Virus record (IMG/VR): IMGVR_UViG_3300004155_000002
Length of the DNA: 42,401 nucleotides
Reading direction: 5' to 3' (one strand)
Source: a virus
The notes below the pieces were generated by a model. That model searched no databases and was not told the origin of the DNA. It saw nothing but the letters and a program-made list of their open reading frames with translations. A program made the position numbers and the translations under genes. Numbering within the stretch: position 1 is the stretch's first letter; every line of letters starts with the position of its first letter. This document shows, in pieces, positions 7,005 through 42,401 of this stretch.

Positions 7005-8914
7005 AAGCAGTTGAGGCCGCCCTTATGGCAAAAGCACGGGCGCTGGGGCCGAGACAAAAACAGCTTCGCCTCCCGCCTCCCCCGGCCGTGAAAATCCCGG
7101 TGGAATTGGAACGCCAATACTATAAAGATCTGCGAGCCGAGGTTGTGGCCCGCCTCGGCAGAATCACCGAGCGCATTCTCGTGCCCGCCCTCCCTTCCCT
7201 TCTCAGGGGAGCGCGGGAGGATCTGCCCACGGTTGACTCGGCGGACGCCCGGCGGCTTGACTCATACACTCGTGAGCTTGATGTGCTTATGAATGGGATG
7301 AGGATTGCCTACGCCACGGAATTGACGCCCGATGAAATCGAAGCCCTTGCAAGAAAATATGCGATCAGGGGCGAGAATTGGAACAAAACCGATCTCGCAA
7401 AATCCCTGCAGCGCGTCCTCGGGATCAACCCGCTTGTCGCCGAGCCTTATTTGCCGGCAGTCATGCGCCAGTTTATTGACGAGAACACTAACCTCATTCG
7501 CTCAATTGGTTCGGAATTCTTTGGAAAGATCCAGCAAGACACCTATAAATATATTCAAGAAGGCGTTTACAACAAGGAATACGCGAAGCAAATTAGCGCG
7601 GAATTCTCTGAGGAATTCAAGCGCCAATATGAGCGGGGCATTCTGAAGCGCCGGGTGACAAATGCCGACGCAAGGGCTCGCCTCATAGCTCGGGATCAGA
7701 TCTCAAAATACAACGGACAGTTGAACCAAACGCGGCAAACTGCACTCGGGATCACAAAATACCGTTGGGTGACCGTTGGGGATGATCGCGTCCGAGAATC
7801 ACACCGCTCAAAAAACGGCAAGATCTACTCATGGAACGATCCACCCGCCGATACGGGGCATCCGGGGGATGACTACCAATGTTTTCCGGCTGACACTTCA
7901 GTTGACCTTTGTTTTGATGCAATGAAAGGTTTCCGCCGTTGGTATGACGGAAAATTGGCCTTTATCGTCACGGATTCTGGTGAATCGGTCAGATGCACAC
8001 CTAATCACCCATTTCTCACCAACCGAGGATGGATTGCCGCAAAGGATCTCAAGGAAGGAGACTATCTCTTCAAGATTTCCCAAAAAACACTCGTCCCGTT
8101 GGAAGTCAATATTTACAAATGCAAAACCACGATTGACCACAAATTCAGACTTCTTGAAAAATTTGGGATTGGTCAAACGGCTAGCGGCACGCTTAGAGAC
8201 TTCCACGGCGATGGAACCGAAAACGAGATCGATGTTGTATCGGCCCAACGCAACCTGGTGGGAGGAATGAATTCCCTTCAAAGCCAGGGCCGCCATCAAT
8301 TCGGATTCTCCGAACCCGACTCTCCGGGAGCGGCTCGCAGCAATCTTTTCAACGGTCTCATTGCTCTTCTTTTTCCCTTTGCTCGCCTTGTGTGCCTTAT
8401 CAGTCAAGCTCATTCTTTCTTCCTTGGAAAGCCGAGCCATCCTGATAAAACCCGCCTCGCTTATGTCCCTAATAGTGACTCCATTACGCCGCAAAATTCT
8501 TCTAATCGGAGTCCTAGAAACCCCTACCTCGATACTGATCGCCAATTCGCTGACGCCAGCCTGATACATCGAAACGATCTTGGCCTGGTCGAGTTTGAGG
8601 GGGGAGCAATCCCTTCGGAATTTATTGATCCCAGGATTGATCCCGAATTCTCTCAGTTTCTCGCTCAGATTGCTGTAACAGACTCCCAACTTCTCGGCGA
8701 CTTCCTTCAGAGTAAGCCCTTCGGATATGAGCTTTGCCGCATATCTGAGGTTAGTTTCCGTGAATTTTCCGGCCATGTTTACAACCTCGAAACGAAAAAA
8801 GGATGGTTCATTGCCCAGGACTTTATCACGAAAAACTGTCGCTGTACATCCGTTGCCGTTTTCGACGAGGGAGTGACAGAAAACCCGACACTATTGGGCT
8901 TATTGAATTCGTGA
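7001..8914 (+). CDS. MuF / SPP1 gp7-type head morphogenesis protein, interrupted by an in-frame intein (7880-8836)
   Basis: ATG 7001 overlaps the portal stop (ATGA). MuF hallmarks WVTVGDDRVRESHRSKNGKIY...GHPGDDYQ are followed only after 319 inserted codons by the conserved CRCT. The track ORF begins at 6968. Confidence 0.85.
   Translation: MKAVEAALMAKARALGPRQKQLRLPPPPAVKIPVELERQYYKDLRAEVVARLGRITERILVPALPSLLRGAREDLPTVDSADARRLDSYTRELDVLMNGMRIAYATELTPDEIEALARKYAIRGENWNKTDLAKSLQRVLGINPLVAEPYLPAVMRQFIDENTNLIRSIGSEFFGKIQQDTYKYIQEGVYNKEYAKQISAEFSEEFKRQYERGILKRRVTNADARARLIARDQISKYNGQLNQTRQTALGITKYRWVTVGDDRVRESHRSKNGKIYSWNDPPADTGHPGDDYQCFPADTSVDLCFDAMKGFRRWYDGKLAFIVTDSGESVRCTPNHPFLTNRGWIAAKDLKEGDYLFKISQKTLVPLEVNIYKCKTTIDHKFRLLEKFGIGQTASGTLRDFHGDGTENEIDVVSAQRNLVGGMNSLQSQGRHQFGFSEPDSPGAARSNLFNGLIALLFPFARLVCLISQAHSFFLGKPSHPDKTRLAYVPNSDSITPQNSSNRSPRNPYLDTDRQFADASLIHRNDLGLVEFEGGAIPSEFIDPRIDPEFSQFLAQIAVTDSQLLGDFLQSKPFGYELCRISEVSFREFSGHVYNLETKKGWFIAQDFITKNCRCTSVAVFDEGVTENPTLLGLLNS
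7880..8836 (+). mobile_element. Intein (Hint-type, 319 codons) in the MuF gene
   Basis: N-terminal Cys1 block CFPADTSV, block B CTPNHPF (TxxH). C-terminal block GHVYNLETKKGWFIAQDFITKN is followed by the +1 Cys of CRC. Removal restores GHPGDDYQ-CRCT. Confidence 0.8.
7898..8776 (-). CDS. Homing-endonuclease-like protein (HTH + NUMOD3-like + DUF559/Vsr-like PD-(D/E)xK motifs), antisense and fully nested in the intein
   Basis: GAGG lies 8 nt upstream of the ATG. HTH-like LTLKEVAEKLGVCYSNLSEKL and GVSELAISIEVGVSRTPIRRILRRNG. NUMOD3-like KGKKKSNETVEKIAASRS. Nuclease-core-like GESELMAALALKGIHSSHQVALGRYNIDLVFGSIAVEV. Confidence 0.65.
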   Translation of the reverse strand: MAGKFTETNLRYAAKLISEGLTLKEVAEKLGVCYSNLSEKLREFGINPGINKFRRDCSPLKLDQAKIVSMYQAGVSELAISIEVGVSRTPIRRILRRNGVTIRDISEAGFIRMARLSKEERMSLTDKAHKASKGKKKSNETVEKIAASRSRRVGFGESELMAALALKGIHSSHQVALGRYNIDLVFGSIAVEVSKRAASRLTNPKFFKKSEFVVNRGFAFVNIDFQRDECFLGNLEEIVSFLEILCGNPSSVGEKWVIRCASDRFTRIRDDKGQFSVIPTAETFHCIKTKVN

Positions 8915-36169: not shown

Positions 36170-37300
36170 TCAAAATGGTACTCGTGTGCAACCGCTTTCG
36201 CGGATCTTTTTCCTCAAGGCGTTACCCTCGCGGCGACTTTTCGTAACGCGATCTGCCATATCATCTGGGTTAATTCCCGATTCAAAATATGCGCGAAGCG
36301 CGTCAAAATTGCTCAAAATGGTATTCAGTCCGTGCACGGTTCGCACCTCAAATGCTCGCCTGGAAGTCGGATACCACGCTAGAAACTCGATCACATATTC
36401 GCGATCCGCGACATCCAAAAGCTGTTTGATATAGACGTTGTTCATTTTCCCGCGTGTGGGAGGTTTCCCATAGGTATGCTCCCATGCCTTAGCATAGGCG
36501 TTCCATGGCTCATTTGTGGGCGCTTCTTTTTTCGATGCTTCCTTTTGTGGCGGTGGTTGCTTTTGGCTCTTTTCCGCCCGCTGGCGATTTTTGGAAGGTC
36601 GTTTGGTGCCGGTGTCGCCTCCCTCCCCGTTTGATTCAACCTCGGGGCTCTTTCCCCCATTTTCCCCCGGTGCGAATGCGCCGGGGAGATCCGCCGCCGA
36701 AGGCGCGGCCGAGTGCGAGTGCGGATCGGGAAATGTATTTGAATTATTCTTATACATTTGATCTGATATTAATATGGACGGTTTTCGGGCGTCCCCCGAG
36801 ACGTCCCCCGAGACGTCCCCAGAGACGTCCCCAGAGACGTCCCCCGAGGCGTCCCCAGAGACGTCCCCCGAGGCGTCCCCCGAGACGTCCCCCGAGACGT
36901 CCCCCGAGGCGTCCCCCGAGACGTCCCCCGAGACGTCCTTGTTTTTCTTTTTTCTGAATTTCTCTTTTCTTTTCAGAGTTCTTTCGTGAGTGGCGAGACA
37001 CTTCCCGGTGTGTTCAAACCAGTCATGAATCACCATTTGCCCGGCCTCGTTCAGCACGATCCAGCCCCGCGAAATTAGTACCGCGAGAAATTTCTCGGGC
37101 TCGCCTTCCCAACGGGCGGCGTCCGCAATGTCGAGTGCCTCGGCTTCGGCTAGCACTCCGTCTGGTGCGTTCGTCCATGCCCACGCCCACAGCGAGGCGA
37201 GGTGTCCTACGAAATGCACCCCAGCGAGCCCCAGATCTCGGGCCGCTTTCCGTGTTTTCAGATTCCCAAAAATTTCGGTATTCACTTGCGCGTATGCCAT
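36170..37300 (-). CDS. Replisome-organiser / replication-initiator-like protein with a (GDVS/GDAS)n linker
   Basis: N-terminal domain HFVGHLASLWAWAWTNAPDGVL...FLAVLISRGWIVLNEAGQMVIHDWFEHTG resembles phage replisome-organiser N-domains, from memory. The central linker is encoded by the 12-bp tandem array. Confidence 0.55.
   Translation of the reverse strand: MAYAQVNTEIFGNLKTRKAARDLGLAGVHFVGHLASLWAWAWTNAPDGVLAEAEALDIADAARWEGEPEKFLAVLISRGWIVLNEAGQMVIHDWFEHTGKCLATHERTLKRKEKFRKKKNKDVSGDVSGDASGDVSGDVSGDASGDVSGDASGDVSGDVSGDVSGDVSGDARKPSILISDQMYKNNSNTFPDPHSHSAAPSAADLPGAFAPGENGGKSPEVESNGEGGDTGTKRPSKNRQRAEKSQKQPPPQKEASKKEAPTNEPWNAYAKAWEHTYGKPPTRGKMNNVYIKQLLDVADREYVIEFLAWYPTSRRAFEVRTVHGLNTILSNFDALRAYFESGINPDDMADRVTKSRREGNALRKKIRESGCTRVPF
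36788..36938. repeat. Tandem array of 12.6 copies of the 12-bp unit G(A/G)CGTCCCC(C/A)GA; iteron-like, candidate origin core
   Basis: Units counted base by base from 36788. Most units contain the palindrome GACGTC. Flanked by AT-rich 36733-36787 and T-rich 36939-36985. Confidence 0.9.
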
Positions 37301-37584: not shown

Positions 37585-38232
37585 TCAAAACCCAGGATCG
37601 AAAATGGAAAGCGTGAGATCTGCACTTCCGGGCGTCAATACCTCGAAGACGCCGGGGGCGCGTTCGACTACGGCGTTGCGGTTGTTCAGATCTATAGATC
37701 GTGGGGCGGGGATCGGCTCGGGGGGAGGATCTGAAAACAGATCGCTTAGGACAACCATAGTGGCCAGGGCCTCAACCAGGGGGCAGGACGCTGCCGCCTC
37801 GGGCACGCTCGCGGGCGCGTCTGTTTCTATAGGGCGCTCACCGACTGCGACCGCTTCCCGGGTATTGTTTTCCGCTTCCAGGCGCGCGGGCACGGCTTCG
37901 GGGGCCGCTTCCACCACGGGCACCGGCACCATTCCCCCGACTCGGGTATTCCAGGCTTGCCGCGCCAGGGCCGCCGACGAGAAAAGCCCCAGGCGGGCAT
38001 CGCACGCGAAGCACCGGGGAACAAATTGTTGCCGCCCCCGCTCCCGGATTTCGCATTTTTCGCTGCCGCAAAACGGGCAATCAACCAGATCCCGGCCCGG
38101 CCTGGGACTCGCCATTGCCGGGGTTTCCAGGGCCGCCGCTTCCGCTTTTGCCCTGGCCTTCGCCTCGGCCGCCGCCAATTTCTCGGCCTCGCTTTTCCGG
38201 GGCCGCCCCCGGCCGCGTTTCACTTCGCTCAT
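37585..38232 (-). CDS. Lar-family (restriction alleviation) zinc-ribbon domain protein with an AT-hook-like N-terminus and long C-terminal extension
   Basis: RGRGRPRK at the N-terminus. CPFCGSEKCEIRERGRQQFVPRCFACDARLGLFSSAALARQAWNTRV matches the Lar pattern CPFCG...C..C...A...WN.R. Confidence 0.7.
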   Translation of the reverse strand: MSEVKRGRGRPRKSEAEKLAAAEAKARAKAEAAALETPAMASPRPGRDLVDCPFCGSEKCEIRERGRQQFVPRCFACDARLGLFSSAALARQAWNTRVGGMVPVPVVEAAPEAVPARLEAENNTREAVAVGERPIETDAPASVPEAAASCPLVEALATMVVLSDLFSDPPPEPIPAPRSIDLNNRNAVVERAPGVFEVLTPGSADLTLSIFDPGF

Positions 38233-41482: not shown

Positions 41483-42009
41483 AATTTTCAGCCGAGGGAT
41501 TGCGAGCTATAGCAGAATTTTGCCTCTGGTTAGCAGACCGAGAGGACACACCCTCTCAGGAATGCGAGCCCGAGGCAGAAACCGAAGCCGAGGGGGAAGC
41601 CGTGGAACCGCCGCCCCCCGAGGCCGAGGAATATAAGCCCGAGGAACCCGAGGAAATCCCCCCGCCCCGCGTTTGGCGCGCCCCCGACCTTCCGCCCGAG
41701 CCCGAGGAAATCCCCGCGCCAGGAAACCCCGGCGTGCCGGAATTTCGCCCGGAGATCGTCAACCGGAAACGCAAGATCCGGGCCGATGAGCGGCGGGATC
41801 TGCCGGAAATATTCGCCACACTCCCGCCAGGTCGGCTCATGACCGCCCGCGAAATGACAAAAAAACTCGGGTTAGACGGGCAAGCCGTGTGGGCATATAT
41901 CGCACGAATGCGAATAAGAGCGGCACAAAAGGACGCGCTTGGCACTAACCAATACTCAACCGACGCCATCCTTTCCCTCACGCAACAAAAACTTGCGAGG
42001 GCAAAATGA
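41479..42009 (+). CDS. Hypothetical acidic, Pro/Glu-rich protein with an HTH-like C-terminus
   Basis: ATG 41479 overlaps the upstream stop (ATGA). EPEAETEAEGEAVEPPPPEAEEYKPEEPEEIPPP, then LMTAREMTKKLGLDGQAVWAYIARM. Confidence 0.5.
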   Translation: MKFSAEGLRAIAEFCLWLADREDTPSQECEPEAETEAEGEAVEPPPPEAEEYKPEEPEEIPPPRVWRAPDLPPEPEEIPAPGNPGVPEFRPEIVNRKRKIRADERRDLPEIFATLPPGRLMTAREMTKKLGLDGQAVWAYIARMRIRAAQKDALGTNQYSTDAILSLTQQKLARAK

Positions 42010-42239
42010 AGCCGAAAGACCGCACGGGCAAGCGGTATGGCCGACTAGTTGCCGTCGAATATCGCGGATCAGTTTTGGTGGGAGTTTGCAAGTCGGCCGC
42101 GTGGTTTTGCGAATGTGATTGCGGAGGTAGCGGTGTATTTTCCGCGTATATGCTGCAAAAGGGCCATCGGAAATCCTGCGGATGCATCCGATTTACTGGC
42201 GCAAAAGGGGGCAATGATGGCACTCGTGATCACTCGTAA
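42006..42239 (+). CDS. Small zinc-binding phage protein (GKRYGRLVAV...WFCECDCGG...SCGC motif)
   Basis: ATGA overlap. The G.R.GRL.v...W.C.CDCG...SCGC pattern recurs in many phage/plasmid small proteins, from memory. Confidence 0.55.
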   Translation: MKPKDRTGKRYGRLVAVEYRGSVLVGVCKSAAWFCECDCGGSGVFSAYMLQKGHRKSCGCIRFTGAKGGNDGTRDHS

Positions 42240-42401
42240 AGAGGGGCAGGCTTTCGAGATCTATATTGGCGATCAGAAGATCAATATCAAAATATCCAAA
42301 ATCGAAAGCGGACGGCAAGCCCGCCTCGCCATCGAAGCCCCGAAGGAAATGCGAATCATACGGATCGATGAGGTGCCGAATGGCCACGCGAAACAAAACC
42401 C
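42214..42401 (+). CDS. csrA: CsrA-like RNA-binding translational regulator (63 aa); the ORF crosses the contig junction and stops at TGA 62-64
   Basis: My own translation: MMALVITRKEGQAFEIYIGDQKINIKISKIESGRQARLAIEAPKEMRIIRIDEVPNGHAKQNP. AAAGGGGG RBS. Follows the CsrA pattern L.LTR+.GE...IGD...v.v..i.G.qvRlgI.APKEv.i.R.E. Not in the ORF track because no stop occurs before the window end. Confidence 0.8.
   Translation, partial: MMALVITRKEGQAFEIYIGDQKINIKISKIESGRQARLAIEAPKEMRIIRIDEVPNGHAKQN
42342..42401. repeat. Right copy of the 60-bp terminal direct repeat
   Basis: Identical to bases 1-60. Confidence 0.95.

Follow-up and report, generated by a model that had tools for sequence, protein, structure and literature searches.

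A gene that spans the two ends of the window (the whole stretch of 42,401 nucleotides analyzed here) encodes a protein that sequence comparison identifies as a divergent and minimal (62–63 aa) member of the CsrA/RsmA family. The explanation that we consider likely is that this is a real, selected gene within a phage operon and that its product acts on RNA in the manner of CsrA. A phage-encoded CsrA homolog had been proposed at this position in an earlier, sequence-only reading, and the proposal is borne out by Pfam, PDB, and PHROG matches of the protein and by the phage genes that lie on the same contig.

In terms of contig topology, bases 1–60 of the window are identical to bases 42342–42401, and no other exact terminal overlap is present in the range of 10–399 bp. 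Merging of the ends yields a circle of 42,341 bp. The repeat thus marks the junction of a circular assembly or belongs to a terminal repeat, and the sequence is either circular (42,341 bp) or a genome with terminal redundancy, opened at an arbitrary position. Read through the junction from ATG 42214, the open reading frame encodes MMALVITRKEGQAFEIYIGDQKINIKISKIESGRQARLAIEAPKEMRIIRIDEVPNGHAKQNP (63 aa) and closes at TGA 62–64. The sequence-only reading had described an ORF hidden by the junction that ends at this same TGA once the 60-bp overlap is merged, and the peptide that it quoted is reproduced exactly. The merge is independently confirmed by a protein recovered in the database search, P0001, which is the window's own csrA product as called on a contig of 42,580 nt and which also has the C terminus ...AKQNP. 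The coordinates of the gene and of the features around it are collected in Table 1.

Table 1. Features at and around the junction-spanning csrA-like gene (window coordinates)
Feature	Position	Strand	Basis and remarks
csrA-like gene, 5′ part (codons 1–61 + 2 nt)	42217..42401	+	Translation; Pfam PF02599, 42.6 bits; L001 has the second ATG only; alternative start ATG 42214; continues over the junction
csrA-like gene, 3′ end	1..64	+	Bases 1–60 duplicate 42342–42401; final codon CCT 59–61; TGA 62–64; P0001 C terminus agrees
Shine-Dalgarno-like AAAAGGGGG	42203..42211	+	5 nt ahead of ATG 42217; contains no GGA
Cys-rich (CxCDCG...SCGC) small protein gene, 77 aa	42006..42239	+	phrog_374, E 3e-13; 23-nt overlap of its 3′ end with csrA
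DNA amino-methyltransferase gene, NPPF motif	39..596	+	phrog_799, E 5e-30; alternative start ATG 27
60-bp terminal overlap	42342..42401	.	Same as bases 1–60

Two other contigs carry orthologs of the gene, with 76–77% identity, in the same position over the same methyltransferase gene. One of these, L001 (JGI 3300042947, 16 kb), derives from a sibling phage, the proteins of which in this region are 73–91% identical to those of the window and are encoded in the same order: a Lar-like protein, RecT, a PD-(D/E)XK nuclease, a RusA-like protein, two unknown proteins, the zinc-finger protein, CsrA, and the methyltransferase, followed by small genes and the genes for TerS, TerL, the portal, the Mu-F-like protein, a scaffold-like protein, and a capsid-associated protein. 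The other, L025, is a short contig in which csrA is followed by the same methyltransferase gene.

The orthologs bear on the choice of start codon. The sequence-only reading had begun the protein at ATG 42214, for a length of 63 aa; its stop codon and peptide stand, but the second ATG, at 42217, is the more likely start, and the predicted product is then a 62-aa protein, MALVITRK...KQNP. We prefer this start because the L001 ortholog possesses only the second ATG and because the G-run AAAAGGGGG is spaced 5 nt from ATG 42217, as opposed to 2 nt from ATG 42214. The counterpart of this Shine-Dalgarno element in L001, AAAAGGGG, is followed by 5 nt and then the ATG. The longer, 90-aa protein called in P0001 from GTG 42133 was rejected, as the 27 codons that it adds fall, in another frame, within the conserved zinc-finger ORF at 42006–42239; it is further disfavored by L025, from which the upstream region is absent altogether and in which csrA is kept.

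A short ORF that is overlapped at both ends by other genes, and for which the gene caller picked a different start and a length of 90 aa, might be a spurious or decaying frame that arose from the junction or by overprinting on its neighbors and that has no function of its own. However, the protein matches the Pfam CsrA profile with an E value of 5.7e-11, and the frame is intact in three independent contigs that differ from one another at many third, synonymous codon positions. For the three pairs formed by the window, L001, and L025, dN/dS is 0.29, 0.06, and 0.15 over the 46 codons that are free of overlap with any other gene, values that point to purifying selection on the csrA-like gene itself. 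Moreover, L025 retains csrA even though the upstream zinc-finger gene is absent. An ORF that arose by chance is thus so improbable that we regard this alternative as effectively refuted by conservation. Consensus scans for a promoter or terminator belonging to csrA returned signals at background level only, and because nothing rises above background between csrA and its neighbors, the simplest description is that of an internal gene of a rightward operon.

The Pfam search that the sequence-only reading had suggested as a check returns CsrA (PF02599) well above the gathering score (42.6 bits versus a cutoff of 27), with residues 4–50 of the protein aligned to positions 2–44 of the 53-position profile, and no other Pfam family is matched at E ≤ 10. 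Two PHROG families annotated as CsrA-like regulators are also matched (phrog_9500, E 6e-6, and phrog_8397, E 3e-3), and all 11 PDB sequence matches are to CsrA, RsmE, RsmA, RsmF, or RsmN. The protein falls short of the NCBIfam equivalog cutoffs (34.1 versus 73 bits for NF002469, 28.6 versus 70.1 bits for TIGR00202, and 21.2 versus 106 bits for NF001844). These scores place it outside the equivalogs of chromosomal CsrA, and its proper name would be "CsrA family protein" rather than CsrA.

To describe the conservation of individual residues, we used an alignment of 23 sequences comprising the window protein, 20 database relatives, E. coli CsrA, and P. fluorescens RsmE. Residues A41 and R49 are invariant in this alignment, and conservation is 90% or higher at L3, R7, G18, R36, and P42. 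The RNA-binding motif on β1 (E. coli L2, L4, R6, and R7) is represented by M-A-L3-V-I5-T-R7-K8, which aligns with MLILTRR/K, and the β4–β5 motif R-x-x-I-x-APK(E/D) is present as R36-L-A-I-E-A41-P42-K43-E44 together with R49. In E. coli numbering, the corresponding positions are L2 (L3 in the window protein), L4 (I5), R6 (R7), R7 (K8), A36-P37-K38-E39 (A41–E44), and R44 (R49). The last of these, R44, is the key RNA-binding arginine according to the mutagenesis literature. The residues that match E. coli E45, E46, and I47 differ and read I-D-E. The sequence-only reading had named hallmark residues shared with E. coli CsrA, and in the alignment with E. coli CsrA and RsmE these are conserved, among them the LxITRK start, the APKE core, and the R44-equivalent arginine.

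An AlphaFold2 model of the monomer, built with the 23-sequence alignment (mean pLDDT 79), contains five predicted strands in the canonical CsrA order (residues 2–7, 12–17, 20–25, 35–40, and 46–50, all assigned E). In this moderately reliable model no C-terminal helix is predicted; residues 54–62 are disordered with pLDDT below 50, and a proline occupies position 54, directly after R49-I-D-E-V, in the tail ...EVPNGHAKQNP. Native CsrA is a strand-swapped, intertwined dimer. A Foldseek search of the monomer model against the PDB gave no significant match and did not recover CsrA, a null result that is uninformative because the native protein is a strand-swapped dimer.

As a control, we folded P0011 (109 aa), a relative with two CsrA domains in tandem, and obtained a model with a pLDDT of 88, the halves of which are superposed by Foldseek on CsrA, RsmA, and RsmE chains with rmsd values of 0.6–1.0 Å and TM scores of 0.74–0.87. 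The predicted model shows P0011 as an intramolecular CsrA-like pseudo-dimer, and divergent relatives of this kind as adopting the intertwined CsrA fold, which lends indirect support to a strand-swapped dimer of the window protein. The tandem architecture is shared by many of the distant relatives, natural proteins of 100–170 aa (P0006, P0007, P0009, P0011, P0016, P0019, P0021, P0023, P0029, P0030, and P0033). The pseudo-dimer of P0011 resembles the engineered single-chain protein Re-CsrA (PMC5864733), and a literature search with the phrase "two CsrA domains" found no paper on natural tandem CsrA proteins.

Close relatives of the window protein are few: searches of billions of proteins retrieved about four, all metagenomic. 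A word-indexed search of 5.8 billion clusters returned two proteins besides the window's own, with 77% and 75% identity, and HMMER, run in full against 1.84 billion representatives, returned 31 proteins at E ≤ 1e-3, two of them at E ≤ 1e-10. Among 50,697 GenBank phage records (tblastn, E ≤ 1), the sole match was to Vibrio phage 1.232.O, with 47% identity to a protein annotated as "global regulator protein family protein". In a scan of contigs from genome collections for a close prophage copy, none was found; the best matches, at 54% identity, are distant CsrA genes in assorted MAGs.

The contig itself, with a GC content of about 54%, is identified by its gene content as that of an uncultured tailed phage of ~42.3 kb, because genes for a terminase (TerS and TerL), portal, Mu-F-like protein, tail, endolysin-domain protein, RecT, and lambda-O-like replication initiator are present. 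It further encodes a PD-(D/E)XK nuclease, RusA-like and Lar-like proteins, and two DNA methyltransferases, and a scan of 25 ORFs revealed no integrase. The nearest homologs of TerL and RecT in cultured phages are just 42–46% identical. The top matches for these two proteins are to phages of Gammaproteobacteria (Proteus, Aggregatibacter, Stenotrophomonas, and Edwardsiella), and similar scores are reached by phages of Firmicutes, of a cyanobacterium, and of one predicted archaeal host; TerL and RecT thus point weakly to phages of Gammaproteobacteria. The Mu-F-like head protein (6968–8914, + strand, 648 aa) contains, relative to its 319-aa ortholog in L001, an insertion of ~318 aa (residues ~306–623) that matches the Pfam families Intein_splicing and PT-HINT, each just under the gathering score, and that is probably an intein.

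The rightward operon in which csrA resides runs, in order, through a RusA-like gene, two unknown genes, the small zinc-finger gene, csrA, the amino-methyltransferase gene, a C5-methyltransferase gene, small genes, and the terminase genes. The Cys-rich zinc-finger protein that precedes CsrA is similar to phage HNH endonucleases in their N-terminal region (phrog_374) but has no nuclease domain. Of the three related contigs, the window and L001 (4897–5115, 78% identity by tblastn) carry its gene, and L025 lacks it. On the other side, the 3′ end of csrA overlaps the downstream methyltransferase gene by 26 nt if the latter begins at ATG 39 or by 38 nt if it begins at ATG 27, and the 26-nt overlap is the same in the window, L001, and L025. 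An overlap of csrA with the start of an N6-methyltransferase gene had been noted in the sequence-only reading, and the phrog_799 match and NPPF motif are consistent with an amino-methyltransferase, the L001 counterpart of which (5271–5825) is 90% identical at the amino acid level.

The C5-cytosine methyltransferase gene that follows (867–1679, + strand; PF00145, E 5e-39) is replaced in L001 (5747–6826) by a gene for an HTH_8 protein and small ORFs, such that this site resembles an exchangeable cassette with conserved regions on either side. In the leftward early operon, the Lar-like restriction-alleviation protein (37585–38232, − strand) scores 27.8 bits against PF14354, for which the cutoff is 28.6, and matches phrog_599. 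Together with the two methyltransferases, this protein would provide the phage with several anti-restriction functions, as predicted from these matches.

CsrA/RsmA controls hundreds of bacterial mRNAs, including those for carbon storage, motility, biofilm formation, and virulence and, in Serratia, three CRISPR-Cas systems. Given this breadth of control, a phage could plausibly use its own copy to take over the host through translation. By analogy with the family, the csrA product would form a strand-swapped homodimer with two RNA-binding faces, would bind GGA-containing sites in single-stranded regions or hairpin loops of 5′ leaders, and would thereby change how mRNAs are translated, or how stable they are, once a cell is infected. 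The likeliest targets would be those of the host Csr/Rsm regulon (metabolism, motility and receptors, and defense such as CRISPR-Cas), possibly with a few phage messages in addition. Whether host targets, phage messages, or both would be affected, and in the direction of repression or of activation, is a matter of speculation.

We also considered that the protein binds RNA in the manner of CsrA and serves as an internal translational timer of phage genes instead of reprogramming the host, for example by damping early and middle messages or the neighboring methyltransferases before packaging. The position of csrA, embedded in a phage operon with overlapping genes on both sides and just upstream of the late packaging module, would suit such a role, as would the several GGA motifs found in a few phage start regions, e.g., upstream of 1681 and 1917. 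The distribution of GGA motifs at large argues against it. The sequence-only reading had supposed that CsrA might temper "GGAG-rich" ribosome-binding sites of the phage, a premise that is not supported: GGA occurs in the Shine-Dalgarno window (−16 to −5 of putative starts) of just 10 of the 46 putative start regions, and the ribosome-binding sites are mostly GAGGTGA or GGGGTGA. The GGA clusters ahead of 1681 and 1917, together with the GGA that precedes the methyltransferase gene, were set aside as candidate targets because L001 and L025 share them only in part or not at all, and the in silico search found no conserved GGA-site target in the phage. On this evidence we judge the timer to be unlikely.

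A scan of GGA density across the window yielded one outlier, with 13 GGA motifs in 150 nt (36792–36941, − strand), which also counts against phage targets, since it proved to be an iteron array, and the iterons of L001 at this place contain no GGA. The dense stretch (36790–36945, − strand) was accordingly rejected as a sponge RNA or CsrA target. It consists of 13 tandem 12-nt units, on the minus strand GGGGGACGTCTC, with a GACGTC palindrome at the core, and lies within the ORF at 36170–37300 (− strand) for a 376-aa replication initiator (phrog_9474), in which it encodes (DVSG)n. The array is flanked by an AT-rich stretch (36730–36790) and by an A-rich stretch. In L001, the same place is occupied by different iterons, of the GTGAACTCAC type, followed by a CAA repeat. 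The arrangement looks like an origin of the lambda-O type, with iterons inside the initiator gene, and the difference between the window and L001 suggests that initiator and origin specificity co-vary.

To return to the preferred reading, in which the protein acts on RNA as a CsrA, the predicted absence of the C-terminal helix is its most distinctive feature. In E. coli CsrA, the helix E45–Y61 is required for binding of the antagonist CesT and has been described as "pivotal" for ligand binding (PMC5864733), and C-terminal helices are the FliW-binding sites in, e.g., B. subtilis (PMC13443453, a 2026 study in NAR). As no such helix is predicted in the phage protein and the helix is needed elsewhere for binding of CesT and FliW, the helix-less phage CsrA may be insensitive to host antagonists of this kind, or it may have an altered RNA specificity. 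The regulatory specificity of CsrA is evolutionarily labile and is predicted neither by identity nor by helix length (PMC13443453), and activity on any host regulon should therefore not be assumed.

The same features could be those of an interfering mimic, which would titrate host sponges of the CsrB/RsmZ type and so free host CsrA, or which would heterodimerize with host CsrA to give a dimer with one helix-less, altered face. The dimerization strands (β1–β5) are conserved in the absence of a predicted C-terminal helix, and CsrA without its helix has been engineered to pair with the full-length protein, giving a stable heterodimer that binds RNA (PMC5864733). A search for a sponge RNA carried by the phage was negative, as no part of the window has a match in Rfam at gathering thresholds, whether to a CsrB/RsmZ-type family or to any other. 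However, identity to E. coli CsrA and RsmE is only ~26–33%, and the β2–β3 and β3–β4 hairpins contain insertions, which together make heterodimerization with a host protein uncertain; we consider interference of this kind improbable. Scarcely more probable is a broader proposal, that the clade represents a phage-specific, helix-less "minimal CsrA" that has kept the GGA-binding β core and shed the CesT/FliW surface. Such a protein would be an unregulatable mimic, poison subunit, or sponge titrator that locks the host Csr/Rsm network in one state, and its expression would be translationally coupled to that of the anti-restriction methyltransferases as one counter-defense module. If this were true, the minimal CsrA could shut down CRISPR-Cas, other defenses, or receptor expression. 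The reading that we continue to favor is the less specific one of a selected, divergent CsrA/RsmA-family gene with CsrA-like action on RNA.

Compared with chromosomal CsrA and RsmE (E. coli and P. fluorescens; PDB 1Y00, 2BTI, and 2JPP), the window protein is alike in its length of ~60 aa, in its five-strand order, and in belonging to the same Pfam family, and it shares with them the LxLTR(K/R) N terminus, the G(D) turn, the Q-x-R-hydrophobic-x-I-x-APKE core, and the arginine on β5 (R44). It differs in being about 26–33% identical to these proteins and below the equivalog cutoffs, in an insertion of 2 aa ahead of the GD turn and insertions of 1 aa in the β2–β3 and β3–β4 regions, and in a tail that contains Pro54 and for which no C-terminal helix is predicted. 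The gene is located in a phage operon and not beside alaS or tRNA genes.

CsrA paralogs carried by other mobile elements offer a second comparison. The plasmid paralog RsmQ takes over host regulation (PMC9928087). Like RsmQ of pQBR103 and CsrT of a Legionella ICE, the phage protein is a horizontally carried CsrA paralog with the potential to supplant or supplement translational control by the host. RsmQ and CsrT, on a plasmid and an ICE, respectively, have been put to experimental test and lie nearer to the host's own Rsm proteins, whereas the window protein is known from sequence and models.

Phage-borne csrA is already documented. Sobrero and Valverde (2020; PMC7366521) found csrA in 30 of 2,517 phages, including the Vibrio phage matched here, and Campa et al. 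(2021; PMC8450108), who used the Pfam model to screen GenBank and IMG/VR, suggested roles in anti-CRISPR activity or in manipulation of the host; PHROGs also includes families devoted to such regulators. In our literature search, no phage CsrA was found to have been studied experimentally. The gene described here resembles the catalogued phage csrA/rsmA genes (Vibrio phage 1.232.O gp66, Burkholderia phage DC1, and the P. aeruginosa F116/RsmM type) in size and setting, being a small gene of the CsrA family that is grouped with other small early or accessory genes in a tailed phage. For the catalogued proteins and for this one, manipulation of host post-transcriptional control is a hypothesis, with the phage function deduced from bioinformatics alone. 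A single example does not by itself change the picture of phage CsrA. In contrast to the phage copies of Campa et al., which are "highly similar" to bacterial CsrA, the window protein is not, and what sets its clade apart is a conserved overlap with a DNA methyltransferase gene. What is new relative to these known phage copies is thus a divergent, unusually short lineage conserved beside a methyltransferase gene, which offers a compact test case for separating the parts of CsrA that are needed for RNA binding from those that are needed for regulation by host antagonists.
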